Of a DNA stretch of 26,407 nt, positions 2,952 to 24,826 are shown piece by piece. The DNA is from a virus (taxonomy: Duplodnaviria; Heunggongvirae; Uroviricota; Caudoviricetes). Below the pieces are notes generated by a model. That model was not told the DNA's origin and did not search any database. It was given only the letters and a program-made list of their open reading frames with translations. The stretch lies in the IMG/VR virus record IMGVR_UViG_3300022660_000062, positions 64,001-90,407 of that record; one strand, given 5' to 3'. The stretch's first letter is position 1. Each line of letters starts with the position of its first letter. The translations under genes were made by a program, and so were the position numbers.

Positions 2952-3173
2952 ATGTTTGATAAAATTGTTGAATCAATGTTACAGTTTAGTAATACATTCT
3001 GGATGTTGCTCTGTGTTCTTATCTTTGCAATGACAGGTTCTTTTGAGGGTATGCTGATCAGTGGCGTGTTTGCTGTTGTAGTACTCATCATGGAGCTATT
3101 CAGTTGCATTCAGAGAGCAAAGAAAAATAAACGACGTAAGGAACGGACTCATGGAAATCAGAAAGTTACATGA
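2952..3173 (+). CDS. Small membrane protein (73 aa, two hydrophobic segments, basic tail)
   Basis: GAGGGAG RBS; hydrophobic FWMLLCVLIFAM and LISGVFAVVVLIMELF; overlaps the start of the 1629-aa gene. Confidence 0.7.
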   Translation: MFDKIVESMLQFSNTFWMLLCVLIFAMTGSFEGMLISGVFAVVVLIMELFSCIQRAKKNKRRKERTHGNQKVT

Positions 3174-6100
3174 ATCAGATGAGCTTCAAGATAGAGCTAA
3201 GAAACACAAGAAAAACAACAAAGGACTCAGTTTTTACTGTACTCTAAATCCGGATGCAGGAAATGTTGAGCATAATGTTGCAATGTTTAATCATATGAAT
3301 ACTCCAGCCGAAAGTCCTTCTGTTAATCCTTGTGGTCCGATGGCTGAAGCTATGAATACAGATGAGGTTTCACATCTATTCAAGTTGCATGTTGGAGATA
3401 TTGTTGAATATGAAGGTCAAGAGTTTACTGTTGACGCTATACGCAATGATCCTGATCATACAGAGCTTGTTCCTTCGATGCTGAAACTTGGAGATGACTG
3501 GGTTCCTGAAGAATGGGTTGCCCTGAATTTTGATCATAAACTAAGAGAGGATAATAGTAAGATGGATTCACAGATTGAATTGAATTACACCGATCTTGAA
3601 GTGACCATTGTTACAAGACCTCGCAGACCTTCCAGTTATCATTTTGAGTATGATCGAGATGAAGCACAGACAGTTGAAGAGACGATTGATTACGAGTTTG
3701 CTGTTCCGAGATCTGATATTGTGGATTTCATCTATGAAAACATGACTGAAAATGATTTTGCAGATATCGATACTGCAACTGAGGCTGAGGTACTTGAATT
3801 CATTAACAAGAATTTTGACACATTGTTTGCCAAATATGAGTCAATGATTTTGGACGCTTATAGAGATCGAGCAAGAGAAGACGCAGAGGAACATATGAAC
3901 GAATCATTAACAAATAAAGAGCTCGGTGAAGCTACTTGTGGCGTAGAGAAGTTTGTTTCATCACTCGGAAAAGATCTACATGAAGCTTTTTTGAGTAAGT
4001 TGATTGATAGTAATACTTCTGAAGAGCTTCTCAGATTAGAAGCTCTGTATGAGAAGTATGCTCGAGCACACGATGATATGCATACACAGAAGATTGTTGA
4101 AAAGGTTAGATCTGCAATTGCTTCATGCGCAGAAAATACTCAACCCTTAGCTGAGTCGGTGAATGAATACGTTATCATGGCAGTATGTAGCGATGGTAAA
4201 AAACAGTATTACAATGTTTCTTCAGCACCACACTGGGTAGCTAAAGCCAAGGATGCAACAATCTTTGATGACATGGACGAGGCAAGAGCTGTCTGGTTCA
4301 AGTTGGATAAGAAATCTTTCAAGAGAGTATTCATTCCTAACTACGATCATGAAAAAATGAACGAGGCTGTTGACATTGACAAACAGTATCAGCTTGACCT
4401 TCTGCTTGACCGCATCGAAGAAGTTATGGACTGGAAACTCAACAAGAAGTGTAAGACAAGAACTCTTGGCAATAATACTTATCGTGTTGTTCATACTTCT
4501 GGAAACACTTCAATGATTGTTAGATTTGATGTTTCCGACCCTGTCAAGCCACTCACTTTCATGATTGATAAGAAAGGTCCATTCACTGCAAAGAATGAGT
4601 CAGAAGCGGCTAATATCATCTTACGTGAGCTTCAGAACAAACACTCTGACTCATTTGATATGTTTAAGAATGAGGGTTTGAGTGATAGAATTCGTAAGAA
4701 CGACTTGAACTATGATGATGAGCTTGATGCTTATCTTGCATCTGAGGGTGATACAGAAGTGCAGTTCCAAGATCGTGAAACTCATACACATGAATTCCGC
4801 ACAAAGAAAAATCAGTGGGGAAGAAGTTATGTTGATGGGCAGTACAATACACAACCCAAAGTAGCTTCTCATACTTGGGGTCGTGTTTGGAAAGATGGTA
4901 AACTTGTAAAACAGTCTGAAGGTCCAAAGTATCAAGTAAGAGCTGATATTGCAAAATATCTTGATTCTGAAGGTAACTTGGATGAGTCTAAAATCCCTGA
5001 CAACTGGACTAAGTATCGTGGAGCTTGGATGTATCCAGTTTATGGTGGATGGGAAGCAAATCTTGATGGCTTACATTATGAAGCTGAAACTGAAGATGAA
5101 TTGAAGTTAAAGATTGATTCTGCAGTTCGTGATGGGTATACAAAGGATAACAAACTAGCACCGTTGTATCGAGATACACTACCAGCTTATGGTGGTATGC
5201 TCGATGAGGCTTGGAGTCCCGATTACATTGATTGCCCTGTTTGTGGCGATATTTCATTTGACGCAAAGAGGGGCAGATGCACTCAGTGTGCATATCGTGA
5301 ATCTGTTGAGGACGATACTGACGATTTAGAGCATCCTGATCAAGAGTTTGATTCTGCAAAGACCTCTATAAATTCTACTAAGTTACCTGCGGTTTACAGA
5401 ATGGTTAAGATTCCTCAAGGAACTACTGGTGTTGACTTCGGTGGTGGATCTTTTGATAATGCAGTAGAGCACATCCGTGATCTTGGAGCAACTCTATGCG
5501 TCTATGATCCTTATAATCGTTCCGCAGAGCATAATCGAGAAGTTATCAAGACATTGAAAGGTAACGGCGGTGCTGACTGGGCTATCAACTCAAATGTTTT
5601 GAACGTTATCAAGGAACCTGAAGCTCGTAAAGCTGTTTTACAGAATATTTCAAAGATTACAAAATCTGGCGCTCCTGTTTACATTACTGTCTACGAGGGT
5701 CGTGGAGATGGTAAAGAAGGAGCTACTAAGTCAGGTTATCAGTTGAATCGTAGAACTCAAGATTACCTTGCTGAAATTCAAGAAGTATTTCCTGATGCAG
5801 TACGTAAGGGTAAGTTGATTATTGCTCATAACGGCAGAGGACATGTTAACGAAAGTAACAATGCCTATAGTTACAAAGATTACACAATCATCGATGCTGG
5901 TTCTGGTTGGAAAGTTAAGGATGCTTCTCAGAAGTGGGTTGGCAACGAATTTGCAACCGATAGAGACGCAGAGGAGTTTGTTGACTCTCTGAATGAGTCC
6001 TTTTTGGACAGCGATGATAACTACGAGTATGTAGCTAGTAAGTCAGTACTTGATTCAGATGGTTTCTATACTGATTACACTTGGTACAAGAACATTGATG

Positions 6101-8040
6101 GTGTGAATGTATTCGTGTTTGGTGACAATGATATCTACAAGCCTGCTGATGGTTACATTGATCATGAAGAGGAAGATGATACCGCTGCTCAGGAATGGTT
6201 TGATTCTTACAACGGATTTGAAGAAGATATTGTTGACGAGAACTTAGATACAAGCAATGATGTCTTCTGTGTCGATGACCAGTTGGAATGGACTGACTTG
6301 TCTGGTGTGAAGTTCCGAGCACTTGTAACTGATGTCAATGATGATGTTGTAGTTCTCGATATGATGCCCGTAAGCGGAGCTCCTGTTACCAGAACTTTTG
6401 AGCTAACTTGTGACTCTAATGGCAAGGAATGTATCATTGTTGATATGGCCTCCGATAAGAGTGATGCTGTTTATGTTTATCCTCCATATGAAGATCTTGA
6501 AGAGAGCACTGCTTCAAACAAAGTAGTATATCCTAACGGTGAACCTGTTACAGATATTGATCTGAATCGTGCACTTGATTATATGTACGGTACTGATAGA
6601 AATCCTGAGTGGACATACACTGATGCAGAGATGCAGCGGGCAATTTACTACTGGATGGATAAGACTGATCCACATCCATCAGGAAAGTCTTACATGAGCT
6701 TACAAGAATCCTACAACATCAAGTTCTATCAAATTTTCCAAGCCCCATCTAAGCCTACAGAAAATGGTAAGATGATTGGCCAGAGAGATACTCTGAGTGC
6801 TGCCATTGACTTCGGAGAGGATCGTTGTGGTCCTGGAAAGTTCTTTATCAAGGGTGTTTGCGATGATGGCAAAACTAGATACGTAGATTTCTTTAGAAAA
6901 GCAAGGGGTTATGTTCCTTTTGCCAACTACAAAGATGACGTAACAGAATCTTTTGAAGATGATGGACCAGTTTATGTTGCATCTTCAGTTGAGAGTCTGA
7001 ACAACTACTGTGCTGGTTTAGGTGACGCTTGTAAAAGATTACGTGATGGAAACATGTGTTCTTATCGTGGTTATGAAGTAGAATTTGTCGATGGTGAGTA
7101 CAATGTGTTCTTGCTGGAATCAATGAACGAATCCTTTGATGACTATCATTATGCAGTTTACAACAATGATGCTCTTTTGAGAGACAAGCTCTGGAGTGTC
7201 TCTGACGCACTTGAGTTCATTCATGCAAATGGTGGCAACATTATCAAACTTTCAAAAGATGGTGTTGATACTGTTATCTGGAAAGATGGTAAGGCAGTTG
7301 GAAGCGGATTTATCGGTAAGGGCATAGATGCTGATGGAAACGATGTTCACTTTGAAGATGGTGAAGATGTTCCAACTCATGCAGCTCCAGAACCTTTCAA
7401 TCCTAGAAAGTGGTTGTACGGTGAGTCAAAAGAAAACCGACCTCTGTACATTATCAGAGACAGTCACGGAAATCAACTATCTGCTCCTAATCCTGACGAC
7501 GAAGAGCTGTGGGATAGAGTTGCTTCTATGGAAGCAAGAGGAAGACGTGGACTGTGTGTAGTTGCTTATACCGGCAAGAAAGAATCACTGAAAGAGTGGA
7601 ATGAATTCAGTGATGACGATGTTGAAGATGATTTGACTCATGCAGCTGTTTACGGCGGCGATAGCAAGTACTGCAAAGAATGCGGTGCTGTAAAGAAATA
7701 TGATGAGGACGGCTTTTCATATTGTCCTGAGTGCTGTGGTGAACTTGACGAGTCCTACTGGTACAATGATCCTGAACTTCGTCAGAAACAAGATCAGCTA
7801 ATTTCTGAATTAGAAGCTGATGGATTTGAAGAAACAGATGGTCAATCATATGGCACTAAGCATTGGACATTCTTCCGCAAGAGAGTTGATGGTAAGGGAG
7901 TCTGGAAAGCAATCTTTGTTGATACTGGATCAAAAGAAGCTGCAATAATTGATGTAACTTATGGTCAAGTTCGTGGTTATGAGCCACTTGATAGTTTCGA
8001 TGCTCTAAGAAGAGATCTTGGAAACAAGTTATTGCCATAA
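3151..8040 (+). CDS. Large acidic multi-module protein, putative capsid-internal polyprotein (SAM methyltransferase module, two Zn-ribbons)
   Basis: Uninterrupted 1629-aa ORF with AAGGA RBS. Recurrent [L/M/V]-X-E-[S/A] motifs; DFGGG/YDPY/NVLNVI methyltransferase motifs; CPVC-CTQC and CKEC-CPEC pairs. The CDS is certain; the function is inferred. Confidence 0.85.
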   Translation: MEIRKLHESDELQDRAKKHKKNNKGLSFYCTLNPDAGNVEHNVAMFNHMNTPAESPSVNPCGPMAEAMNTDEVSHLFKLHVGDIVEYEGQEFTVDAIRNDPDHTELVPSMLKLGDDWVPEEWVALNFDHKLREDNSKMDSQIELNYTDLEVTIVTRPRRPSSYHFEYDRDEAQTVEETIDYEFAVPRSDIVDFIYENMTENDFADIDTATEAEVLEFINKNFDTLFAKYESMILDAYRDRAREDAEEHMNESLTNKELGEATCGVEKFVSSLGKDLHEAFLSKLIDSNTSEELLRLEALYEKYARAHDDMHTQKIVEKVRSAIASCAENTQPLAESVNEYVIMAVCSDGKKQYYNVSSAPHWVAKAKDATIFDDMDEARAVWFKLDKKSFKRVFIPNYDHEKMNEAVDIDKQYQLDLLLDRIEEVMDWKLNKKCKTRTLGNNTYRVVHTSGNTSMIVRFDVSDPVKPLTFMIDKKGPFTAKNESEAANIILRELQNKHSDSFDMFKNEGLSDRIRKNDLNYDDELDAYLASEGDTEVQFQDRETHTHEFRTKKNQWGRSYVDGQYNTQPKVASHTWGRVWKDGKLVKQSEGPKYQVRADIAKYLDSEGNLDESKIPDNWTKYRGAWMYPVYGGWEANLDGLHYEAETEDELKLKIDSAVRDGYTKDNKLAPLYRDTLPAYGGMLDEAWSPDYIDCPVCGDISFDAKRGRCTQCAYRESVEDDTDDLEHPDQEFDSAKTSINSTKLPAVYRMVKIPQGTTGVDFGGGSFDNAVEHIRDLGATLCVYDPYNRSAEHNREVIKTLKGNGGADWAINSNVLNVIKEPEARKAVLQNISKITKSGAPVYITVYEGRGDGKEGATKSGYQLNRRTQDYLAEIQEVFPDAVRKGKLIIAHNGRGHVNESNNAYSYKDYTIIDAGSGWKVKDASQKWVGNEFATDRDAEEFVDSLNESFLDSDDNYEYVASKSVLDSDGFYTDYTWYKNIDGVNVFVFGDNDIYKPADGYIDHEEEDDTAAQEWFDSYNGFEEDIVDENLDTSNDVFCVDDQLEWTDLSGVKFRALVTDVNDDVVVLDMMPVSGAPVTRTFELTCDSNGKECIIVDMASDKSDAVYVYPPYEDLEESTASNKVVYPNGEPVTDIDLNRALDYMYGTDRNPEWTYTDAEMQRAIYYWMDKTDPHPSGKSYMSLQESYNIKFYQIFQAPSKPTENGKMIGQRDTLSAAIDFGEDRCGPGKFFIKGVCDDGKTRYVDFFRKARGYVPFANYKDDVTESFEDDGPVYVASSVESLNNYCAGLGDACKRLRDGNMCSYRGYEVEFVDGEYNVFLLESMNESFDDYHYAVYNNDALLRDKLWSVSDALEFIHANGGNIIKLSKDGVDTVIWKDGKAVGSGFIGKGIDADGNDVHFEDGEDVPTHAAPEPFNPRKWLYGESKENRPLYIIRDSHGNQLSAPNPDDEELWDRVASMEARGRRGLCVVAYTGKKESLKEWNEFSDDDVEDDLTHAAVYGGDSKYCKECGAVKKYDEDGFSYCPECCGELDESYWYNDPELRQKQDQLISELEADGFEETDGQSYGTKHWTFFRKRVDGKGVWKAIFVDTGSKEAAIIDVTYGQVRGYEPLDSFDALRRDLGNKLLP

Positions 8041-8135: not shown

Positions 8136-10958
8136 ATGGCATTTACTGCAAGTAAACTACTAGAAATTGCTATTGCCGAGCTTGGCTACAAAGAAAAAGC
8201 TTCTAACTTTCAGCTCGATGATAAAGAAGCCAATGCTGGTAGTGGCAACTGGACGAAATATGCTCGTGATCTTCACACCGCAGGATATTATCAAGCAGCT
8301 AAGAACGGTTATGCATGGTGTGACATGTTTGTTGACTGGTGCTTCTTACAGCTTGGTGGCAGCAAAGAAAAAGGCGAATGGCTCGAATGCCAAACAGGAC
8401 TTTATGGTGCAGGATGCGAATGGTCATCTAACTGTTATCGTTGGGCAGATCGTTGCGGAACTGAGCCGAAAGTCGGTGCACAAATCTTCTTTGCTAAAAA
8501 CGGTAAAGGATCTGAAGAGCATACAGGTATTGTAGAAAAGTTTGACAGTAACTATGTTTACACAATTGAGGGTAACGCAAGTAACATGGTAAAGCGTAAA
8601 ACATACGCTCGTAATTCTGATTACATCCTGTGTTATGGATATCCAAGATTTGATGAGACTACAAATGAGACGCAAGCAACAACTTCAACAATTGCTGCTG
8701 ATCATTTTGACAAAGGGGATGTCGTTAAGATTGTTTCTGGCGCTAACTGGTTAAGTGGATCTGCTGTTCCTACATGGGTGATCAAGAAGGAATGGATTAT
8801 TAAAGAAGTTTCTACTTCTGATGGTAGAGTTGTTGTCAATGAATCAGTTGATGGAGCAAACAAGATCAATAGTCCTATTCACTATTCTTCTCTAGTTCTT
8901 GTTAAGGCTGCTAATCCGAAAGAGGATAAAGTTGAAACAGAGCTGGACGGAGGAAACAAGGAAACTGAGGTTGCTCAAAGTAGTTTGAAGTATTCTACTG
9001 CAAATCCGCCGCTTGTTTGTATGCAGACTCAGAGCACTTGTTATAAGGGCACAACCGAAATGACTGTTCTTGGTGTGCTGTGGCATAGTACAGGTGCAAA
9101 CAACAAGACTATCAAGCGCTATGTTCAGCCTAGTGACAATGATCCAAACAAAGATGCTCTGCTTAAGTTAATCGGTAAGAATCAGTATAACAATGACTGG
9201 AACCATATTGACAGACAAGCTGGTTTGAATGCTTGGATTGGTACATTAGCTGATGGCACAGTTACGACCGTTCAGACAATGCCCTGGAACTTTAGACCTT
9301 GGGGCTGTGGAAGTGGTAAGAATGGTTCTTGTAACAGTGGCTGGATTCAGTTTGAGATCTGTGAGGATAACTTACAAGACGCTGACTATTTCAACAAGGC
9401 ATACACAGAAGCTTGCGAGCTAACTGCGTATCTTTGTAAGATGTTTAATCTTGATCCTCATGGAACCATTAACTATAATGGAGTTAAAGTTCCCGTTATC
9501 CTTTGTCATGCAGATTCTTATGATCTTGGTTTCGGATCAAATCATGGTGACATTGATCACTGGTTCCCGAAGCATGGTAAGTCAATGGTAACAGTAAGAA
9601 ATGATGTTGCAAAGTTACTCCAGAATTCAACACAAGCTGCTCCAGTAGAAGGTGTATACCAGAAGGGTGTTGCAACTCAGCTTTCTAAGAATTTCAAATC
9701 AACTGAATTTGATTGTCATGGAGATGGCTGTTGCACTACAACAGAAGTAGATCCAAAACTTGTTACTTATTTACAAACAATTCGTGATCATTTTGGCAAG
9801 GCTGTTAATATTAGCAGCGGATATAGATGTGCAACACACAACAAGAGTGTTGGAGGAGCTGTTGGTTCAAGACATACAAAAGGTCAAGCAGCTGATATCT
9901 ATATTAACGGTGTAACTCCTTTGGAGATTGCTCGTTACGCAGAACAACTTGGCATCTTAGGAATTGGTTTATATGAAACTGATGAAGATGGTCATTTTGT
10001 ACATGTTGACACAAGAGCGACAAAGTCATTCTGGTATGGACAAGCACAAGCTAAGAGAGATACATTCCAAGAGCCTGTTAAAATTGATATATCAAAAGTT
10101 AACACAGCAAAAGCTGATCCGAAGCATGTTTGGGACTTCTTGAAAGCAAAAGCATTGAATGATTTTGCAGTGGCTGGTTTGATGGGCAATTTGCTTGCTG
10201 AGTCAAACATGTTACCAATCAACTTGCAAAACACTTATGAGAAGAAGCTCGGTATGACAGACGCTGAGTATACAGCAGCAGTTGACCAGGGAATCTACAA
10301 AGATTTCGTCAAAGATAGCGCAGGCTATGGTCTAGCTCAGTGGACATACTACAGCCGTAAGGAAGACTTGTTGGAGTATGCTACTTCTCAGAAGAAATCA
10401 ATCGGTGATTTAGATATGCAGCTGGAATTCTTGTGGACTGAGCTTCAAAGATACAAGGCTGTTATGAAGCAGTTGAATGAAGCAACTTCAGTTAGGGAAG
10501 CTTCTGATGTAATTCTTCATGACTATGAAGCTCCTGCTGATCAAAGCGAGGCTGTTGAAATCAAGCGTGCTGAATTTGGACAGAAGTATTTTGATGACTA
10601 TGCCGTATGTATGCACAAGTCAACAGAAATTCAGAACCAGAAAGATGCAACTTGTACAGAAGCTGGATATACAGGTGATAAGGTATGCTCTGAATGTAAC
10701 TTTGTAGTAGAAGTGGGGTCACTTATTCCTCCTATTCAGCACAACTATAGCTTGACAGGAAAGCTTGAGCCTACAATTGAAACAGAAGGCTACACTGGAG
10801 ATCAAGTTTGTTCAAGATGCAATCATACAATCAAGGGAGAAGCAATCAAGAAGTTGAGTCCGATTGTTGTTACTCCTGAAGATGATGAGGTTAAGATTAC
10901 TATCAAGAAGAGCTGGATCCAGAAGTTGATTGAGTGGTTGCTCAGCTTGTTAAAATAA
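8136..10958 (+). CDS. Multi-catalytic peptidoglycan hydrolase 1: CHAP + SH3-like + amidase_2 + peptidase M15 + phage lysozyme-2 + Cys/His repeats
   Basis: CHAP: WCDMFVDW, HTGIV, TIEGN. Amidase: VLWHSTG, WIQFEICED, ILCH, NHGD. M15: SGYRC..HN..VGG...SRH..GQAADI, HVD. Lysozyme-2: AGLMGNLLAES, GYGLAQWT. AAGGAG RBS. Confidence 0.92.
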   Translation: MAFTASKLLEIAIAELGYKEKASNFQLDDKEANAGSGNWTKYARDLHTAGYYQAAKNGYAWCDMFVDWCFLQLGGSKEKGEWLECQTGLYGAGCEWSSNCYRWADRCGTEPKVGAQIFFAKNGKGSEEHTGIVEKFDSNYVYTIEGNASNMVKRKTYARNSDYILCYGYPRFDETTNETQATTSTIAADHFDKGDVVKIVSGANWLSGSAVPTWVIKKEWIIKEVSTSDGRVVVNESVDGANKINSPIHYSSLVLVKAANPKEDKVETELDGGNKETEVAQSSLKYSTANPPLVCMQTQSTCYKGTTEMTVLGVLWHSTGANNKTIKRYVQPSDNDPNKDALLKLIGKNQYNNDWNHIDRQAGLNAWIGTLADGTVTTVQTMPWNFRPWGCGSGKNGSCNSGWIQFEICEDNLQDADYFNKAYTEACELTAYLCKMFNLDPHGTINYNGVKVPVILCHADSYDLGFGSNHGDIDHWFPKHGKSMVTVRNDVAKLLQNSTQAAPVEGVYQKGVATQLSKNFKSTEFDCHGDGCCTTTEVDPKLVTYLQTIRDHFGKAVNISSGYRCATHNKSVGGAVGSRHTKGQAADIYINGVTPLEIARYAEQLGILGIGLYETDEDGHFVHVDTRATKSFWYGQAQAKRDTFQEPVKIDISKVNTAKADPKHVWDFLKAKALNDFAVAGLMGNLLAESNMLPINLQNTYEKKLGMTDAEYTAAVDQGIYKDFVKDSAGYGLAQWTYYSRKEDLLEYATSQKKSIGDLDMQLEFLWTELQRYKAVMKQLNEATSVREASDVILHDYEAPADQSEAVEIKRAEFGQKYFDDYAVCMHKSTEIQNQKDATCTEAGYTGDKVCSECNFVVEVGSLIPPIQHNYSLTGKLEPTIETEGYTGDQVCSRCNHTIKGEAIKKLSPIVVTPEDDEVKITIKKSWIQKLIEWLLSLLK

Positions 10959-10978
10959 CGGTTATTTCACATACAAAG

Positions 10979-11008
10979 AATGAGGTGCTATTCGCGTAGC
11001 ACCTCATT
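10979..11008 (+). terminator. Probable intrinsic terminator
   Basis: 12-bp stem AATGAGGTGCTA / TAGCACCTCATT, loop TTCGCG, followed by TCTT. Confidence 0.75.
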
Positions 11009-11058
11009 TCTTGTATATAAAGTATATAGATCAAACTTTGAGGAAGGATGTTGATAGT

Positions 11059-13569
11059 ATGGCGTTACGTTTGAATGTTGTTGCCATCGCTGATGGTGGT
11101 GGTAAGCCTGCCTCTCAGACCGAAGTTGTTCATTCCTATACAGTTGATGCTCTGCTTGCAATTGCTCTAGCAGAGAAGGGCTACAAAGAGAAGAGTAGTA
11201 ATTCAAGTTTAGATAGTAAGACAGCTAACGCAGGAAGTAACAACTACACAAAGTATGCAAGAGATCTTCATAATGCTGGTTATTACCAAGCAAGCAAGCA
11301 AGGATTTGCTTGGTGTGATATGTTCGTTGATTGGTGTTTCTATAAGCTTGTTTGTAATGTAACAGGTAAGACTGGAAAAGATGCTCGGTTGATAGCTAAC
11401 GAGTTGATCTGCGTGAATGAAAATCAACTATATGGAGCAGGATGTGCTGAGTCTCGTGGTTACTACAAGGAAAAAGGACGTTTAGGAAATCTACCAGTAA
11501 AGGGCGCTCAAATATTTTTCTGGGAAGCCGGTGAAGTTTCTCACACAGGTATTGTTACAGGATTTGATGCTAATCAAGTTTATACCATTGAGGGTAATAC
11601 AAATAATCAAGTTAATGAGCGAGCATACAAGCGGAATGATAGCAGTATTGTTGGCTATGGCTATCCGAAGTTAACAGGACTGAAAGTACCAACCGGATCT
11701 ACTGTTCCTCCTGACCCTCCAAGCTCTTATGGCGAGGATACCAGTACTGAAAATACAGACAGTTATAACGGTGGTAACAGTGTCGGCGGAAGCGGCTCAG
11801 TCATCTCCTATACATTTGATGGGCTGAAATATTCAGATGATAACCCACCCTTGTACTGCCCGCAAACTCAAAGCACTTGTTGGAGAGGCACCAGTAAGAA
11901 TATGACTATTCGCGGAGTGTTGTGGCACGATACTGGTGCTGGAAACCCTGAGATTCGTAGATATGTTCAACCCGATGACAATGCCAATGATCGAGAGTAC
12001 TGGATAAACCTACTTGGTAAGAATCAGTATAACAATGACTGGAATCATGCTGAACGACAAGCAGGAATGAATTGCTGGATAGGTAAACTAGCGGATGGAT
12101 CTGTTACAACTGTTCAGACAATGCCTTGGAATTATAAACCTTGGGGTTGTGGCGGCGCATGTAATGACGGCTGGATTCAGTTTGAAATCTGTGATGATGT
12201 TGACCACGGCGATGATCCCGACTACTTCCATGCTGCTTATGAAGAAGCTTGCCAGATAACGGCATACTTGTGTGCAAAGTTTAATCTAGACCCTCTTGGA
12301 ACTGTGGAGTTCAAAGGAAAACAAGTTCCTGTTATACTTGATCATCGAACTTCTTGTAAACTTGGACTCGGAAGTAACCACGGTGATGTTAGAGGTTGGT
12401 TCAAGAAATATGGTAAATATGCTGACGAAGATGGCATGCAGATTGTTCGTCAAGATGTTGCAGCACTTTTAAGTAAGGGCGGTAACTATATTCCAAATGT
12501 TAGGATTGACGATATTGTTACTGTTGATCCCGGAGCAACAGCAAAAGATGGTTCAGTTGCTGCGCCATGGATTACATCTAAGCGTTGGAAAGTTTCTAAT
12601 ACATCCTCAGAGGATGAGTATGCGATTCTTGGCCAGCGCGAGGATACCGCATCTGTTGTACTGAATAGGGCTTACAAGAAATCAAATCTGACTGTAGTTA
12701 CTGCTAATGGATCTGTAACTCCTTCTCCTAACACAGGCAACTTAACTAACAAAGAAAGAATTTGGAACATTCTTTCTAGCAAAGTTAAGGATAGTAATGG
12801 ACAAACAAACTATTTCGGAGTTGCTGGAATCATGGGTAACATGATGGCAGAGTCTGGTCTTAGACCAAACAATCTTCAGAATACATATGAAAAAAGTTTA
12901 GGTTACAGTGATGAAAGTTACACTGCTGCTGTTGATAACGGAACATATACAAACTTTGTACGAGACAGCGCAGGTTATGGACTAGTTCAGTGGACATACT
13001 GGTCTTTGAAGGAAGAACTACTTAAATACGCTCAAGAACATAACAAATCCATTGGTGATCTAGATATGCAAGTAACATTCTTGTGTCATCAGTTGTCAAC
13101 GGGATATACATCTGTTTGGAATACTTGTTGTAACGCTAAAACTGTTAAAGAAGCCTCTGATAAGATGCTACATGGTTTCGAACGACCTTACGGACATGAT
13201 GGCGTCAACAAAGAGTCACAAGAAAGTAAGAGAGCTCAGTTTGGTACTGATATTTACAACGAGCTAGTCAACGGTTGTTCTCATTCGGAAACAGTAACAC
13301 GAGATAATTGCGCTGCAACTTGTTCCTCTGATGGATACACAGGTGATGAGGTTTGTTCTTCCTGTGGCTTAACTGTTAGATTCGGTGACATTATTCCTGC
13401 AACTGGTCATAACTATCAGTATGGTGTATGTACTATTTGTGGGGCAACTCCAGAGCAAGATAATGGTGGAGGAGGATCTGTTCCAAACATCACAAATGGT
13501 ATTGTTACTCGAGATGATTTGATTCAGATTCTTTCTGTTTTGAAAGATATGCTAAGTAGAGAAAGTTGA
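11059..13569 (+). CDS. Multi-catalytic peptidoglycan hydrolase 2, paralogue of hydrolase 1: CHAP + amidase_2 + SH3-like + phage lysozyme-2 + Cys/His repeats
   Basis: WCDMFVDW/HTGIV/TIEGN; VLWHDTG/WIQFEICDD/ILDH/NHGD; AGIMGNMMAES/GYGLVQWT. Start moved from 11011 to ATG 11059, which follows AGGAAGGA. Confidence 0.92.
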   Translation: MALRLNVVAIADGGGKPASQTEVVHSYTVDALLAIALAEKGYKEKSSNSSLDSKTANAGSNNYTKYARDLHNAGYYQASKQGFAWCDMFVDWCFYKLVCNVTGKTGKDARLIANELICVNENQLYGAGCAESRGYYKEKGRLGNLPVKGAQIFFWEAGEVSHTGIVTGFDANQVYTIEGNTNNQVNERAYKRNDSSIVGYGYPKLTGLKVPTGSTVPPDPPSSYGEDTSTENTDSYNGGNSVGGSGSVISYTFDGLKYSDDNPPLYCPQTQSTCWRGTSKNMTIRGVLWHDTGAGNPEIRRYVQPDDNANDREYWINLLGKNQYNNDWNHAERQAGMNCWIGKLADGSVTTVQTMPWNYKPWGCGGACNDGWIQFEICDDVDHGDDPDYFHAAYEEACQITAYLCAKFNLDPLGTVEFKGKQVPVILDHRTSCKLGLGSNHGDVRGWFKKYGKYADEDGMQIVRQDVAALLSKGGNYIPNVRIDDIVTVDPGATAKDGSVAAPWITSKRWKVSNTSSEDEYAILGQREDTASVVLNRAYKKSNLTVVTANGSVTPSPNTGNLTNKERIWNILSSKVKDSNGQTNYFGVAGIMGNMMAESGLRPNNLQNTYEKSLGYSDESYTAAVDNGTYTNFVRDSAGYGLVQWTYWSLKEELLKYAQEHNKSIGDLDMQVTFLCHQLSTGYTSVWNTCCNAKTVKEASDKMLHGFERPYGHDGVNKESQESKRAQFGTDIYNELVNGCSHSETVTRDNCAATCSSDGYTGDEVCSSCGLTVRFGDIIPATGHNYQYGVCTICGATPEQDNGGGGSVPNITNGIVTRDDLIQILSVLKDMLSRES

Positions 13570-15515
13570 GTGATTGGATGGCTGAAGAAAGATTTGTATA
13601 CCAAGTAGGAGATCTAATTCAGATCGATCCTACAGCAACACGCATTGATGGATCCTCAATTGATGCTGACTTGAAGGGAAATAACTACAACTGGTTTGTT
13701 ACGGATGTTGATCCTACAAACTTTACTTTGACTCTCGGAGCATACAGAGCATTTGGATTGAGATATAGATGGAATCCTCCGATTGTAATTCATGAGGATT
13801 TTGTGTCTAAGATAGTTAAACTTGTTTGTAGACACGCAAACGCAGTTGTTGACTCAAAAGTTGAACCTACTTGCTTGGAAGATGGTCTAACTGAAGGCAG
13901 GCACTGTCCTGACTGTGGTGAAGTTCTTCTAGCACAGCATAAGATTCCTAAACTGGAACACGAATATGTGTACGATATGGATCAAGGTGTTAAAACTTGT
14001 ACAAAGTGTAAACATCAGATATTTGACTCAGAACGATCCATTGATCTTACAGGAGACGACATCAGAAAGATGATTCAGATAATTGAGGCTATGCTTTCAT
14101 ATGATTCATCTTCACCAGTTCCCCCTGAAGTTATTCCTGAGGTAGATCCTCCTGTGGAGCCAGTATTTAGTTCCGATATTACATTTACAAGCGAGTGGAA
14201 AACAGATCTGGATCTTCCTTACTTGTTTTATACTCCTTCAAGTGCAACAACCGACGGAACAACTCCGCTCATTGTTTGGCTACACGGTTCAGATGAGTGC
14301 GGTGCAAGCGAGAGCATATTCCGCGACAGAGGCTTGCCTGCTGTTTTGAAAAGCTGGTCATTGAAAGGTTTCAACGCATACATACTTTGCCCCAGACTTC
14401 CTGGAGGTATCAAATGGACTCAACGATCCGATTCTGTTTTCAGTATGATTTCTAACATTGTTAGTAAGTACAAAGTTGATACACGAAAGATCATACTTAT
14501 GGGCCACTCTCTTGGTGGTATTGGAACTGAGTACATTGCGTTCCAGAAACCTGGTTATTTCTCGTGTCAGATTATAATGAGCGGTTACAGTTCTGGAGTA
14601 GATCTATCTCAGTTAAAAGATCTACCAACAAGGGTGTATGCTGAAAATTCAGAGTATTCAGCTCATTACAACACACTGAAAAATACATTTGGGCAGGAGG
14701 CTTGTACGGTTCTCAACTGTGGTCATGGTGAAGTTCCTGGTAAGGCATTAACTATTGAAAAGTCAGACGCTGCCGGTGTATCTGATCTTCTGTACTGGGC
14801 AATCTCTCAAACAAATGAACAACTTGATGATACAGAGAGTGAGCCTAAATTACAAGTTCCCTTTACAACTGTTGTTACAGCTGATGGTGTAAATCTTAGA
14901 ACTGGACCTGGAACAGAGTATGACGTTGCGGATAGCAATAACAAGGCTTATGCTGGACAACAGCTGACTATAGTTGAAATTGTACAATCCGGTAATCATA
15001 ATTGGGGTAAGCTAGATCCGAATATCTGGAAAACCTCAAAGACAAGTAGTTGTATCGGAAAATCTGATCGCTGGATAGCACTAGAGTACACAACTGCTTT
15101 TAACTCGGAAACATTTAAGACTCCTACATGGATATATCCATTATCATATCAAAGGCTATCAAGCCCTTATGGTTATAGAATACATCCTATCAGTGGAGAA
15201 TGGAAAATGCACTGGGGTGTAGATCTTGGAGCATACTGGGGAACTCCGATATATGCAACAAAAGCAGGAACTGTTTCAACAGTGGCTTATCAAGAGGATG
15301 GGGCCGGAAATTATATCTGTATAAAACATGAAGATGGAACTCAGTCTGATTATTTCCATCTTGAAGAGCAACTTGTTTCTGTTGGTGACAAAGTTGAAGC
15401 CGGACAGCATATCGGTAGATGTGGCAGCACTGGCGGATCAACAGGCCCTCATTTGCATTTCCAGATATGGGAGAACGGCTCTAGACAAGATCCGGCAGAG
15501 TACATTGATTTCTAA
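13566..15515 (+). CDS. Multi-domain hydrolase 3: SH3-like + Cys/His repeats + alpha/beta-hydrolase esterase + SH3b + M23 peptidase
   Basis: PLIVWLHGS and GHSLGG nucleophile elbow; VNLRTGPGTEY (SH3b); HWGVDLG and HLHF (M23). TTG start overlaps the upstream TGA; the exact start is uncertain. Confidence 0.88.
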   Translation: MSDWMAEERFVYQVGDLIQIDPTATRIDGSSIDADLKGNNYNWFVTDVDPTNFTLTLGAYRAFGLRYRWNPPIVIHEDFVSKIVKLVCRHANAVVDSKVEPTCLEDGLTEGRHCPDCGEVLLAQHKIPKLEHEYVYDMDQGVKTCTKCKHQIFDSERSIDLTGDDIRKMIQIIEAMLSYDSSSPVPPEVIPEVDPPVEPVFSSDITFTSEWKTDLDLPYLFYTPSSATTDGTTPLIVWLHGSDECGASESIFRDRGLPAVLKSWSLKGFNAYILCPRLPGGIKWTQRSDSVFSMISNIVSKYKVDTRKIILMGHSLGGIGTEYIAFQKPGYFSCQIIMSGYSSGVDLSQLKDLPTRVYAENSEYSAHYNTLKNTFGQEACTVLNCGHGEVPGKALTIEKSDAAGVSDLLYWAISQTNEQLDDTESEPKLQVPFTTVVTADGVNLRTGPGTEYDVADSNNKAYAGQQLTIVEIVQSGNHNWGKLDPNIWKTSKTSSCIGKSDRWIALEYTTAFNSETFKTPTWIYPLSYQRLSSPYGYRIHPISGEWKMHWGVDLGAYWGTPIYATKAGTVSTVAYQEDGAGNYICIKHEDGTQSDYFHLEEQLVSVGDKVEAGQHIGRCGSTGGSTGPHLHFQIWENGSRQDPAEYIDF

Positions 15516-18335: not shown

Positions 18336-18836
18336 ATGAAGTTCAGTAAGTTGTTTCTTGATGAATCCTTGTTTGATAGTACATCAATGAAGTACGATGA
18401 TGATTTCAGTGAGGCTGAACTTCCTCCTGAGAGTTTGCAGGGACCGACCTCTGGGTCCGATTCTGGTGTAACAGATTTAGTCATAACTGCAATAAACGAC
18501 GAGTGGGAAGCAATTCGGACTTATAATTCTATCATCGAGACTTTGAAGTATGAAGCTCCTAACAATGAAGATTATGTAAGATTTATTCAGATTCTGAATG
18601 ATATCAATGCAGAAGAAAACAAACATGTGGGACAGCTTCAAGAAATTCTACAGAGATTATCACCAAACGCGAAATTCATCGACAAAGGACGTGATGAAGG
18701 AAGATCACAGTTTAATTTTGCGAACGGTTTGTTACAAGTTCAGGCCTGGGAGCCGAAACAAACAACTGCCACAGTAACTCCAGATGTTTCTGGTGAAGAT
18801 GTGTGCACATTAACTGACATTGATGACGATATGTGA
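18336..18836 (+). CDS. Ferritin-like (two-helix, EncFtn/rubrerythrin-like) protein with N-terminal LDES leader
   Basis: AINDEWEAIRTY...DINAEENKHVGQL matches the E..E..Y / EExxH diiron ligand pattern. Confidence 0.65.
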   Translation: MKFSKLFLDESLFDSTSMKYDDDFSEAELPPESLQGPTSGSDSGVTDLVITAINDEWEAIRTYNSIIETLKYEAPNNEDYVRFIQILNDINAEENKHVGQLQEILQRLSPNAKFIDKGRDEGRSQFNFANGLLQVQAWEPKQTTATVTPDVSGEDVCTLTDIDDDM

Positions 18837-18848
18837 GGATTGATACAT

Positions 18849-19862
18849 ATGGCAAAACGTAGATTAAAAAATGAATCAATTGATAATCTGCAGAGAGTTG
18901 TAGACGCAGAAGCTCCTGCAGTAGTTGGACAGATGGATGTTGTCATGGCAGACGCTGTTCAGGAGAGCGCTAAGAATGACGAACATGCAGAGGAAGTTGC
19001 TACTCAGCTGCAGAAGACTGCTGATGTAGTTATTCCTGAAGATCCGAAAGAGGAGAAACCTGCTGTTGATAACAAGTTTACAGCAAAGTTAGTTCTGGAT
19101 GAATCTCTGGAAGATTTCTCCCTTGTAACAGAGGATGCTACTCCTAAGGATGGTAGAGCAAGAAAAGTTTATGACGATGACGACGAAGATGAATATCTGG
19201 ATTACGATATGTTTGACTTCGTCTATGGTCTTGTAACAGACTGCTGGCCTAAGCCCTTGAACCCTCTTGGACACAAGATGCGTAAGTTCATGTACATTGG
19301 TTCTGATAAGTACATGGATTCTCCTGATGCGGACACTCGTGATTCTTCTGATGGTCATGCTCAGGTTGCAAGCTATGGCGACTCCATTGAAGTTTATTCC
19401 AACAATCCTGCAGACTTCAAAGACATTGAGGATGTCTGTAAGCTGTATAAGCTGAGCTACTCTGGTCCTCACCGCAGACGCAGCAAGAGTACTTACTGGG
19501 AGTATTCATTCCGTGTAAATGTTCCTTGTGTGAGCAGTGGTTATCCTTACATGGTTGAGGAGTACTTCGAGACTCTTGGAATGACTATGGAAGATGTGAT
19601 GCCTGCTGATTTCTGCAAACAGTATCGCAAGAGACAAGCAACAGTTGAGAAAGAAGCAAAGAAGTATATCAATCAGGCTGAAGTTGATAAGCTGATCGAT
19701 AAAGCAATCACTGCTGCAGCTCAGGACAACACTGAGCCCTTGGAAGCACATCTTAAGAGACTTTATGTAGATTTAGATGCCGCTGGTTTAACTTACCAGA
19801 AATCCAAAGTTAAGAAAACCTTCATGGACGCTTTTGATGATCCTGAGGAAGACGACGAATAA
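18849..19862 (+). CDS. Acidic hypothetical protein, possible prohead core or internal protein
   Basis: GAGGA RBS fits ATG 18849 rather than TTG 18840. N-terminus MAKRRLKNES; internal VQES and LDES; poly-acidic tracts. Confidence 0.75.
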   Translation: MAKRRLKNESIDNLQRVVDAEAPAVVGQMDVVMADAVQESAKNDEHAEEVATQLQKTADVVIPEDPKEEKPAVDNKFTAKLVLDESLEDFSLVTEDATPKDGRARKVYDDDDEDEYLDYDMFDFVYGLVTDCWPKPLNPLGHKMRKFMYIGSDKYMDSPDADTRDSSDGHAQVASYGDSIEVYSNNPADFKDIEDVCKLYKLSYSGPHRRRSKSTYWEYSFRVNVPCVSSGYPYMVEEYFETLGMTMEDVMPADFCKQYRKRQATVEKEAKKYINQAEVDKLIDKAITAAAQDNTEPLEAHLKRLYVDLDAAGLTYQKSKVKKTFMDAFDDPEEDDE

Positions 19863-21330: not shown

Positions 21331-22683
21331 ATGGCAACAAAAGGATTAGTTGGTGGTGTCAATACCACCTCAACAGTTGTTACGTCTTCAAGTAATACAT
21401 CAAGCACTAATCTACAAGGAACTGCGACTGGAACACAAGAGACAGTAACAGCATCTGTTGGAAGTAGTCAAGCATACAATGCTCGCATTCTCGCTAACTC
21501 AAACACTCCTGTGGAGTATGTTGGTGCTGAATCAGATTCTATGTACATAAATGTTGACAATTCTAACAGAACAATTAGTGGTGAAGTAAAATGGCGCAGC
21601 ATGATTGCCACTAGTGAGGAACAGGAAGATGCATATCATGCATATCCGGCTAACAAAGCTAGAATAAACTTTGCAGATTTATCCAAGTCTCTGTCAACAA
21701 TTCAGAGTACTGTCGGAGTGCTTGAAGACTCTTGCAAGAAGTCAACAACAAACATCAATAAGTATATTGATGATCTAGCAAAAATACAGAGTGCACTAAC
21801 TGATTGTCAGCAATTCTGTACAGCTTTGAAAGATAGTTTGGATGCTGAAGTTGCAGCTCGAGAGCTGGACCATGTTAAATTGAGAAAAACTGATGCTGAA
21901 AACTTCAACACACTTAAAACTGATTTCAGTACATTAACAACTCAAACTATTACTCGTATGGATGCTCAAGATGCAGAAATCAAGAGCATCAAGGATGCGG
22001 TTGCAAGCGAGGAATTCCGTGCAAAATATGAGGAAGGAAGAATTGAGGAGAGTCTTCAGGCAACAACTAGAATGCTTCTCGATACTTCTCGTAATCTTGG
22101 AACACTTGAATCACAAACTCAGGAGTTAACAAATAGATTTAACAGTTTAGAAACTTCTGAACAGCTAACAACCATTGCTGATCACACAGCTCAAATTGAA
22201 TCTCTAGATCAAGAAATGGAGAACTTAGACTTGAGATTGACCTCTCAAGTTAGTGAAGCAACGCGTGAAACTGCAAAACTAAGAGACATCGCGTACAAGC
22301 ATAGTGCAGATATTACCACTGTTACCGCGACAGTTAAACAAGCTGAAAATGATCTTGAGGATCTTTCACAGGCTCATGAAGTTCTTGAAACTGTTGTTGA
22401 TAACATGCACAGAACGCTTGAGGCAGATATTCAAGACAGAGAGAAACAGTACTTGCATCTGTCCACAAGAATTTCTGACGAAGGAACAATTCGAAGAGAG
22501 ACCGACACTTTCCATGAAGAAGAGCTTGCCAGATTAGAGCTTCGTATTTCAATGCTACAAAGTGAGCTTGTGCTGGTTATCCAAAATCTGGCAGACGAGT
22601 TGAGACTTCGTGACAGTGAGCTTGAATCGGGCATGAACAGTATTACATATGATTTTATTGATGCAGGTACTGCACCAATCTAA
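21331..22683 (+). CDS. Long coiled-coil protein, probable tail fibre or shaft component
   Basis: Ser/Thr-rich N-terminus, extended heptad-like helical region, E..AR motifs; located in the tail module. Confidence 0.7.
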   Translation: MATKGLVGGVNTTSTVVTSSSNTSSTNLQGTATGTQETVTASVGSSQAYNARILANSNTPVEYVGAESDSMYINVDNSNRTISGEVKWRSMIATSEEQEDAYHAYPANKARINFADLSKSLSTIQSTVGVLEDSCKKSTTNINKYIDDLAKIQSALTDCQQFCTALKDSLDAEVAARELDHVKLRKTDAENFNTLKTDFSTLTTQTITRMDAQDAEIKSIKDAVASEEFRAKYEEGRIEESLQATTRMLLDTSRNLGTLESQTQELTNRFNSLETSEQLTTIADHTAQIESLDQEMENLDLRLTSQVSEATRETAKLRDIAYKHSADITTVTATVKQAENDLEDLSQAHEVLETVVDNMHRTLEADIQDREKQYLHLSTRISDEGTIRRETDTFHEEELARLELRISMLQSELVLVIQNLADELRLRDSELESGMNSITYDFIDAGTAPI

Positions 22684-22697
22684 GGAGATAGCTAGTA

Positions 22698-24410: not shown

Positions 24411-24427
24411 GAAAGGAGGAACATGTA

Positions 24428-24826
24428 GTGCAATTTCAGATTAAGTATGGATTAAGAAGAAACATTGACAAGATTGCTGATGCAAACAAGATTGAAGGTT
24501 GTTGGTATATTTGTACTGATACATTTGAAGTCTTTGTGTGCTTGAATGGTAATCTTGAGCCAATCAAAGCTGCCTCCTCTTTTGACGATGATATTGTCGA
24601 CCTGAAAGCTCGTGTTCAAGCGTTGGAAGATGCTTCTGAGTCTGAGGTCAAAATAAATACAATCTTTGATCTTCCTGAACAAGGTCTTAGTAACATTGTA
24701 TATATTGTTGTTAAGGATAATGCTGCATACAGATGGAATGAAGACACAGGCAACTATGTATGCATCGGTAGAGACTGGATGGAAATCAATCGTATCAACG
24801 GTGGAGATGCAGCCTCTGTATTCTGA
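24428..24826 (+). CDS. Small tail-fibre-associated protein (GTG start)
   Basis: AGGAGG 8 nt upstream of GTG; LP..G..NIVYIV....AYRW...Y..IG...INGG motif common in fibre-associated proteins. Confidence 0.7.
   Translation: MQFQIKYGLRRNIDKIADANKIEGCWYICTDTFEVFVCLNGNLEPIKAASSFDDDIVDLKARVQALEDASESEVKINTIFDLPEQGLSNIVYIVVKDNAAYRWNEDTGNYVCIGRDWMEINRINGGDAASVF

Follow-up and report, generated by a model that had tools for sequence, protein, structure and literature searches.

The viral record IMGVR_UViG_3300022660_000062 of IMG/VR (Caudoviricetes) is a 90.4-kb contig with a CheckV completeness of 41%, and its final 26.4 kb (positions 64,001 to 90,407, all of which is referred to here as the window) contain a gene for a 185-kDa protein of 1629 residues, P0001. 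This protein is built from small modules joined at a recurrent hydrophobic-x-Glu-Ser/Ala motif, and we consider it probable that P0001 is a polyprotein that is targeted to the prohead, cut at these joints by a protease of the Peptidase_S77 family, and ejected with the DNA as separate modules. The motif is enriched in P0001, is positioned in the linkers between modules, and marks the boundaries at which related phages exchange their cassettes. The end of the N-terminal leader is equivalent to an internal joint, an S77 protease is present in the fuller genome of the phage, and the same motif is found in this protease and its scaffold-like part as well as in the capsid protein of relatives.

Within P0001, the pattern [LIVM]-x-E-[SA] occurs 18 times, compared with 3.4 +/- 1.8 occurrences in 2000 composition-preserving shuffles (z 8.1), none of which attains this count, and L-x-E-[SA] occurs 11 times, with 1.1 expected from the shuffles. 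An earlier reading of the gene from its letters alone (hereafter the sequence-only reading) had taken these motifs for prohead-protease sites and proposed that their enrichment be measured against the remaining proteome. The density of [LIVM].E[SA] is indeed 4-fold higher in P0001 (11.0 per 1000 residues) than in the other 144 open reading frames (ORFs) of the 90-kb contig (2.95), and that of the narrower [LM][NDHQ]E[SA] is 17-fold higher (6.8 versus 0.40). In an unbiased scan, L.ES ranks first among all 8000 patterns of the form 'a.bc' in P0001, with 8 occurrences versus 0.53 expected (Bonferroni p 7e-4), and it is also the top pattern in the homologues P0002, P0005, P0006, P0007, P0015, and P0036, each analysed separately. 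The motif is therefore a real feature of the protein and not a product of its composition.

The individual sites were found at the residues where the sequence-only reading had placed them, with the Glu of LHES at 8, MAEA at 66, MNES at 251, LGEA at 260, LHEA at 278, LAES at 335, MNEA at 405, LDES at 612, LDEA at 686, YRES at 717, VNES at 901, LNES at 949, LEES at 1118, LQES at 1186, VTES at 1266, LLES/MNES at 1323/1327, YGES at 1425, and LDES at 1534, together with the variants LRED 133, VDEN 1030, and KKESLKEW 1478-1482. Its hand count is exact, as 12 of the 19 ES dipeptides have L/M/V at P3, and a single site, MDEA 377, was missing from its list. Positions P3, P1, and P1' are kept among the joints, while P2 and the flanks differ. 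At the 20 sites, L/M/V, E, and S/A are encoded by freely varying codons, indicating that selection acts on the peptide; the same variation rules out a DNA-level recombination signal at the joints.

To locate the sites within the fold, AlphaFold2 models were built for residues 1-720 and 718-1629 from alignments of homologues (A2/A3), with a mean predicted local distance difference test (pLDDT) score of 64 and 62, respectively. The models show a chain of small confident domains with low-confidence segments between them. A total of 17 of the 20 motif Glu residues fall into segments with pLDDT below 50, compared with 36% of all Glu (binomial p 2.7e-6), and 11 of the 20 are found in linkers of fewer than 30 residues (p 1e-4), so that the coincidence of domain boundaries and motifs foreseen by the sequence-only reading is borne out. 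Several linkers are centred on a site (607-618/E612, 896-902/E901, 949-954/E949, 1183-1188/E1186, and 1530-1537/E1534), and the variant sites LRED 133, VDEN 1030, and KKESLKEW 1478/1482 are also located within linkers. The brackets described in that reading were likewise recovered: the methyltransferase (aa 718-901) is flanked by YRES and VNES, and the two Zn-ribbons by LDEA/YRES (687-717) and LKEW/LDES (1483-1534). The resulting module map is given below in window coordinates; arrows mark the putative cleavage positions, and block ends are the ends of BLAST alignment blocks with homologues.

3151-8040, + strand: P0001, 1629-aa ORF, read here as a mosaic, motif-punctuated polyvalent/cargo polyprotein
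3151-3174, +: N-terminal leader MEIRKLHE↓S, 8 aa, resembling a capsid-targeting sequence (CTS); Glu8 kept in 8/8 close homologues
3175-3348, +: aa 9-66, basic, predicted disordered module (RAKKHKKNNKG...; pLDDT <50), ending MAE↓A; elsewhere a stand-alone 89-aa gene (in G003) or internal, after MGES|NEL, in a 395-aa protein of G006
3349-3549, +: aa 67-133, small beta domain ending in the variant LRE↓D, in low-pLDDT linker 126-139; breakpoint cluster at 132-141; no such module in P0015-P0020
3550-4155, +: aa 134-335, beta sheet and helical bundle, with LAES 335 in linker 330-347
4156-4365, +: aa 336-405, low-confidence module with a conserved FDDMDEARAVWF helix, ending MNE↓A; Glu405 kept in 8/8, with the P0008 insertion immediately behind it
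4366-4986, +: aa 406-612, two alpha/beta domains, ending LDE↓S in the 12-residue linker 607-618 centred on the motif; breakpoints at 606-617
4987-5208, +: aa 613-686, small beta+alpha domain, ending LDE↓A; linker 662-689; 12 block ends
5209-5301, +: aa 687-717, Zn-ribbon (CPVC...CTQC; weak match to the Ribosomal_L37e Zn-ribbon), ending YRE↓S; 85 block ends at 704-733
5302-5853, +: aa 718-901, class I S-adenosylmethionine (SAM) methyltransferase fold by Foldseek, ending VNE↓S; linker 896-902
5854-5997, +: aa 902-949, ending LNE↓S; linker 949-954 centred on the motif; Glu kept in 8/8
5998-6240, +: aa 950-1030, acidic beta domain ending in the variant VDE↓N; linker 1025-1044; 61 block ends at 1026-1052; homologous module in a 916-aa protein of G006
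6241-6504, +: aa 1031-1118, beta domain, ending LEE↓S; linker 1110-1123; 59 block ends; missing from P0003, P0005, P0007, and P0008
6505-6708, +: aa 1119-1186, helical module, ending LQE↓S; linker 1183-1188; 15 block ends
6709-6948, +: aa 1187-1266, ending VTE↓S; Glu kept in 7/7; 4 block ends at 1270
6949-7131, +: aa 1267-1327, ending in the double site LLE↓S-MNE↓S, where the deletion of P0002-P0004 begins
7132-7425, +: aa 1328-1425, ending YGE↓S; linker 1410-1436; whole module absent from P0002-P0004
7426-7596, +: aa 1426-1482, ending in the variant KKE↓S-LKE↓W; linker 1460-1505; 11 block ends at 1468-1492
7597-7752, +: aa 1483-1534, Zn-ribbon (CKEC...CPECC), ending LDE↓S; linker 1530-1537
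7753-8037, +: aa 1535-1629, C-terminal module, confident alpha+beta domain (pLDDT ~87) of a widespread mobile family

About 17-19 modules are counted in this way, which retains the modular chain of the sequence-only reading and makes its figure of ~20 mini-proteins an upper bound. Not every motif sits at an edge. LGEA 260 and LHEA 278, neither of which is conserved, are part of confident helices, and the sites at 251, 260, and 278 belong to the helical bundle, while 377 is located in a predicted helix of a conserved segment. MNES 251 falls into a pLDDT dip with 2 breakpoints and is a possible internal site of the segment 134-335 in the model.

Among the modules, only the SAM methyltransferase has a recognisable fold in the models, with a Foldseek probability of 1.0 to many SAM-bound class I SAM methyltransferases. 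It carries the glycine-rich motif I VDFGGGSFD of a Rossmann-like SAM-binding fold and is 57-85% identical to modules in many polyvalent-type proteins (79-85% in many phages), some of which also carry LPD11 (PF18824). Pfam and PHROGs searches with P0001 returned a sub-threshold Methyltransf_23 match at 754-852 (22-24 bits, under the cut-off of 27) and a Zn-ribbon-like stretch at 692-717, and nothing else. Neither a feature search of the ESM Atlas with aa 134-335 and 406-612 nor Foldseek with the model of the N-terminal half (E<=0.001) gave a match, and no embedded peptidase was found in P0001 by Pfam, PHROGs, or Foldseek.

The homologues of P0001 show how this chain is assembled and reassembled. 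A total of 279 proteins of 895-2851 aa were found, most of which match P0001 over just 10-20% of its length. Of the clusters of block ends observed three or more times, 50% are no more than 6 residues away from a motif, compared with 15% for random site sets (p<0.0002), and individual homologues gain, lose, or split off modules exactly at the motifs, as the sequence-only reading had anticipated. More specifically, P0002-P0004 lack exactly residues 1329-1424, between MNES 1327 and YGES 1425 (aligned blocks 1-1328 and 1425-1629). Two mini-modules, each bounded by x-x-E-S, are inserted at E1534 in P0003-P0005, an insertion of ~190 aa is found at E717 in P0006, and insertions of ~85 aa ending IVxE↓[AGS]W are found at E686 in P0003, P0007, and P0008. 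At 686, 717, and 1534, a copy of the motif borders the inserted segment at either end. Throughout the homologues, the flanks of the joints diverge around a nearly invariant P1 Glu.

A more distant phage with an S77 protease (G006) encodes two further mosaic proteins, of 916 aa (29621-32920) and 395 aa (21384-24515), which reuse the acidic, beta, and basic leader modules of P0001 and the mini-module of P0003-P0005 with the same x-E-S/A punctuation.

The C-terminal module (1535-1629) was searched against 1.84 billion representative sequences, in which it is carried by 66 representative proteins, at any position and in up to 13 copies. In 30 of 38 distant and otherwise unrelated host proteins that were examined, the residue preceding the module is the Glu of [LIVMFY]-x-E. 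The four N-terminal copies follow directly behind an 8-aa leader, MKFNKLNE or MKFKSLNE, and internal copies end in ...LLP, behind which x-x-E-[SA/G/N/D] stands. Structure, mosaicism, exact insertions and deletions, and this survey of distant carriers agree that the motifs are the joints between modules. The family of the C-terminal module also includes one 727-aa protein with 13 repeats and another protein with 6 (P0367, P0381), as well as stand-alone proteins of 75-98 aa.

Cleavage at such joints would call for a protease that cuts after Glu. T4 gp21 cleaves after L/I-x-E, in core proteins at numerous positions, and an Asp at P1 blocks the processing (PMC9026906); its relatives in giant phages also cleave after Glu (PMC10052503). 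The 90-kb contig, which is a fragment, gave no Peptidase_S77 match, and megablast and tblastn searches against GenBank phages returned nothing useful. Synteny was then traced across related contigs. A 57.8-kb contig of a close relative, collinear with the window (G001), carries a large terminase (TerL) at its end. Contigs of 210-217 kb with an identical terminase encode Portal_T4, Peptidase_S77, and Gp23, and in relatives of this terminase on contigs of 130-161 kb, one of them complete with terminal repeats, the order is terminase, T4-type portal, small gene, protease of 507-522 aa, and capsid protein. The link to the window itself is close to sequence identity: its 378-aa protein lies on a contig of 222,986 bp that matches 11,488 nt of the window with 99.99% identity, and the 2209-aa fibre protein of that contig recurs on a near-identical contig of 222,948 bp, where TerL, Portal_T4, a 146-aa gene, a 523-aa Peptidase_S77 protein (P0247), and a 419-aa Gp23-family capsid protein follow one another. 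The gp21-type protease that the sequence-only reading had suggested looking for is thus encoded in the fuller, ~223-kb genome of this T4-like phage, beside T4-type portal and gp23-type capsid genes.

P0247 matches Peptidase_S77 over residues 31-169 (39.1 bits versus a cut-off of 27), and a coiled coil of ~340 residues follows, which by sequence makes it a protease fused to a scaffold-like tail; it has no match among PDB sequences. The motif VTE↓S stands immediately after the protease domain, followed in the tail by VEE↓S, LTE↓S, LAE↓S, VCE↓S, and IKE↓S, and the relatives' proteases show the same pattern. This architecture of a gp21-type domain (~170 aa) and a ~340-aa coiled-coil tail with many x-E-S sites is found across the clade (P0247; L064 8396-9964; L059 8233-9771), and no separate gp22-like scaffold gene was recognised between its portal and capsid genes.

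The capsid protein of the G001 type begins MATKSLFE↓A and has KFMNE↓AF at Glu51, which is invariant in comparison with a 64%-identical relative. The Pfam Gp23 model starts at residue 67, and residue 72 aligns to residue 31 of mature T4 gp23*. The site thus precedes the block aligning with gp23* residue 31 by ~20 residues, so that MNE↓A lies near the position of the gp23 cut in T4. Among the neighbouring proteins of the head region, two start with MSFDYINE↓A and MAYDIFDTYKKRL[TK]E↓S. The motif, which the sequence-only reading had proposed to look for in the capsid propeptide, was found in the tail of the phage's own protease and in the capsid-protein N-terminus of close relatives, from which all of the capsid evidence comes.

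Some observations on these head genes stand apart. On a 210-kb JGI contig (L060), an in-frame TGA occurs within the protease domain (14922-14924) where a sister contig has GGT (Gly); possible explanations include an error in sequencing, a defective variant, and local recoding. In G005 and G007 (L058 15612-16814; L057 10036-11982), the capsid gene is seemingly interrupted after ~65-89 codons. In G005, a homing-endonuclease-like ORF of 301 aa with repeated NKG motifs occupies the gap, and its likely start, MKVRKLKE↓S, is oddly like a cargo leader.

The N-terminal leader of P0001 would connect these sites to head targeting. In T4, the CTS consists of 10 residues (MKTYQEFIAE), is sufficient for head targeting, and is removed by gp21 (PMC8442874, PMC9026906). 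MEIRKLHE↓S resembles this sequence in its build, and close homologues begin MNVKRIQE↓A, MKVNKLNE↓S, or MKINRLHE↓S. On a 178-kb contig, the P0001-type gene is divided into two, P0009 and P0022, and the second gene begins MKFLKEE↓SNAY exactly at the internal joint GHVNE↓SNNAY of P0001 (VNES 901). Judged by these sequences, the end of the N-terminal leader and the internal joint are equivalent.

Leaders of this type are also found on other genes, among them module-bearing proteins with the N-termini MKFNKLNE↓T and MKFLKEE↓S. A 166-aa protein encoded in the window is likely a fellow head-targeted protein, judging from its N-terminus:

18336-18836, +: 166-aa gene with leader MKFSKLFLDE↓S, of the P0001 type; orthologue in G001 starting MKFKKLSLDE↓S

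A 340-aa gene of the window (within 18336-19862, +) has a leader-like N-terminus, MIHMAKRRLKNE↓S, and a conserved LDES at ~88-90. A 275-aa gene of G001 (L007 3709-4536, -) begins with the leader MKVQKLSE↓S and has no counterpart in the window.

Taken as a polyprotein of the prohead, P0001 would act as follows. The 185-kDa chain is probably guided by its leader MEIRKLHE↓S into the core of the prohead under assembly, where the gp21-type (Peptidase_S77) prohead protease probably cuts after Glu at exposed [L/M/V]-x-E↓[S/A] joints. This would yield up to ~17-19 small proteins, among which a SAM methyltransferase, the two Zn-ribbons, and a strongly acidic domain are predicted, next to many folds of unknown function. 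The released modules would remain with the DNA in the head and enter the host upon infection. The same joint would form the unit boundary at which relatives insert, delete, permute, and split off modules, and a joint that is also an exchange boundary would allow the array to be re-equipped without disturbing its processing. The sequence-only reading had proposed an expandable cassette of effectors that is packaged, cut, and ejected to counter host defence. Cassette exchange at the motifs is observed, whereas packaging, cleavage, ejection, and effector function are what we infer from it and from the head genes, and the counter-defence role likewise. The protein-level evidence for this mechanism is circumstantial but coherent, and the interpretation is supported in that none of the computational tests contradicts it.

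Several observations weigh against this mechanism. Large virion proteins such as N4 virion RNA polymerase (vRNAP) are packaged uncut, and some polyvalent proteins are delivered uncut (PMC5512222). The P0001 gene lies outside the head-gene cluster and behind early-type genes, its upstream neighbours encoding Tpt1/KptA, a dCMP deaminase, and a helix-turn-helix (HTH) protein; the internal protein (IP) and alt genes of T4 are likewise located outside the head-gene cluster. In the models, sites 260, 278, and 377, and perhaps 251, are probably inside domains rather than at joints. Low pLDDT may also reflect thin alignments (21 and 47 rows), especially at 15-76, 354-407, and 1246-1351. Certain predicted products are tiny, such as the 31-aa Zn-ribbon and a 48-aa module, and may not work alone, and with the methyltransferase as the sole recognised fold, 'effector' is an assumption. 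Finally, the capsid site is read from relatives (TerL 50-65% identical; G001-type syntenic).

The alternative that survives best, although we regard it as unlikely, is that the motif is a mere linker or cassette-boundary convention within a multidomain chain that stays uncut, comparable to N4 vRNAP or P1 DarB, and is perhaps packaged, the joints being inherited with the flanks of the modules. Modules do bring their joint along across unrelated host proteins, which descent of the flanks could partly explain. However, a hydrophobic-x-Glu-Ser/Ala joint is atypical for a flexible linker, and the peptide is kept while codons vary, with P3, P1, and P1' conserved where P2 and the flanks differ. The same signal at leader ends, in the protease/scaffold protein, and at the capsid-protein N-terminus is not predicted by flank inheritance alone.

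It is a good deal harder to sustain that P0001 is cut by the prohead protease but serves mainly as core, scaffold, or filler, similar to an inner body, with fragments that mostly leave the head at maturation. In T4, peptides from gp22, gp67, and gp68 are expelled after cleavage of these proteins at many L/I-x-E sites (PMC9026906), many of the products predicted here are smaller than 10 kDa, and most modules are without a recognisable enzymatic fold. Against such a role stand the conserved SAM-methyltransferase fold and the Zn-ribbons, as well as the fast turnover of modules, which resembles arms-race cargo rather than scaffold; moreover, the protease already has its own coiled-coil scaffold-like tail.

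Processing of the polyprotein in the cytoplasm by another host or phage protease, independently of the capsid, appears very improbable. The gene adjoins early-type genes, no embedded peptidase was found, and another one may be encoded elsewhere in the 223-kb genome, but the motif fits the specificity of the T4-family prohead protease and that protease's own substrates in the clade, the leader is CTS-like, and no other protease candidate was seen. A chance or compositional artefact of a Glu/Asp/Ser-rich protein (P0001 is acidic, with 8.4% E and 10.9% D) is already refuted by the count that 0 of 2000 shuffles reach, the Bonferroni p of 7e-4, the independent signal in homologues, and the coincidence with linkers and breakpoints.

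The remaining features of the window provide the surroundings of this gene. A hydrophobic 73-aa ORF (2952-3173, +) overlaps the start of P0001 by 23 nt and is 50% identical to a 64-aa ORF at the equivalent place in G001; by sequence, it is probably a real small membrane protein that is translationally coupled to the polyprotein. Downstream of P0001, three genes for multi-domain peptidoglycan hydrolases are followed by tail-fibre-like genes. The three successive large proteins (8136-15515, +; 940, 852, and 649 aa) stack CHAP, Amidase_2, Peptidase_M15, Phage_lysozyme2, an alpha/beta-hydrolase-like segment, and Peptidase_M23, and their arrangement is kept in relatives; none of the three has an MKxxKLxE leader. 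The putative structural genes of 432, 340, and 450 aa gave no PHROG, Pfam, or PDB-sequence match. TGTATAT occurs 16 times in the window (for example at 2386, 8095, 15527, 16190, 19940, and 24697) versus 4.0 expected, frequently just 5' of genes, with none directly upstream of P0001, and is a candidate phage promoter element. A shared T4 late promoter was rejected, as its box TATAAATA is found once in the window, at 2882, which is no more than chance.

Should cleavage take place at the joints, one gene and the existing capsid protease alone would suffice to deliver about a dozen and a half small proteins, and the cutting signal would double as a recombination-tolerant boundary for module swapping. 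The modules, mostly of unknown fold, would then be candidate early host take-over or anti-defence factors, and a simple sequence rule could predict which proteins uncultured T4-like jumbo phages deliver with their virions. The CTS packaging trick of T4 engineering may also have a natural counterpart here, with multiple cargoes. More tentatively, and with not quite even chances of being right, we propose that in a large clade of T4-like gut and environmental jumbo phages one joint, hydrophobic-x-Glu↓Ser/Thr/Ala, is both the prohead-protease site and the universal boundary of cargo modules, so that any module could be used behind an MKFxKLxE leader as a gene of its own or at any place inside a giant polyprotein and still be released in the head, with the specificity of the protease acting as a 'grammar' for the cassette shuffling of injected effectors.

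T4 is a first reference for this system. Like P0001, the T4 internal proteins IPI-III and Alt have a short N-terminal leader ending in hydrophobic-x-Glu and are encoded away from the head cluster, with a fast turnover of genes (PMC9026906, PMC8442874). In both systems, a gp21-family (Peptidase_S77) protease is encoded beside T4-type portal and gp23-type capsid genes, and the cleavage signal is common to cargo, scaffold, and capsid proteins, the capsid site being read here from relatives. In contrast, T4 cargo is encoded by separate small genes with one N-terminal cut (Alt is cut at both ends), whereas P0001 strings together ~17-19 modules with a signal at nearly every joint and prefers Ser over Ala at P1'. 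No similarity of P0001 to IPI-III or Alt was found with Pfam or PHROGs. The T4 proteins gp22, gp67, and gp68 also have many L/I-x-E sites (PMC9026906), but they are small helical scaffold proteins, unlike P0001 with its globular modules, one of which has an enzyme fold. In phiKZ and SPN3US, gp21-related proteases (gp175/gp245; S/A/G-x-E or A-x-E) make several post-Glu cuts per substrate and ejection proteins are housed in the head (PMC10052503, PMC5694885); these cuts break down long N-terminal propeptides until a single mature domain remains, while the sites of P0001 separate many folded, exchangeable modules.

The second reference is the class of polyvalent proteins (Iyer, Burroughs, Anand, de Souza, and Aravind 2017, PMC5512222), which, like P0001, unite many disparate domains in one giant phage protein and are subject to rampant shuffling. 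These proteins comprise 2-15 or more disparate globular domains, with delivery alongside the DNA predicted and release by a zincin-like MPTase proposed (PMC5512222). P0001 shares the multi-domain organisation and the phage context, its two AlphaFold models showing about 17-19 segments that fold separately, and homologues sharing its methyltransferase module carry LPD11 (PF18824); in P0001 itself, no LPD or hub domains (MPTase, ArdC, SNF2, DarB-type methylase) were detected. Whereas the release proposed for polyvalent proteins rests on embedded MPTase peptidases, P0001 has no peptidase domain and instead presents sites of the trans-acting prohead-protease type at its joints, of which no description was found in PMC5512222. 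Text searches of the literature for such an architecture also found no description, which, given an incomplete collection, is absence of evidence only. By analogy, P0001 looks like a fusion of polyvalent proteins with the CTS-tagged, gp21-processed internal proteins of T4 and, if this is true, it links polyvalent proteins with T4 capsid targeting and gp21 processing, which have until now been described separately.

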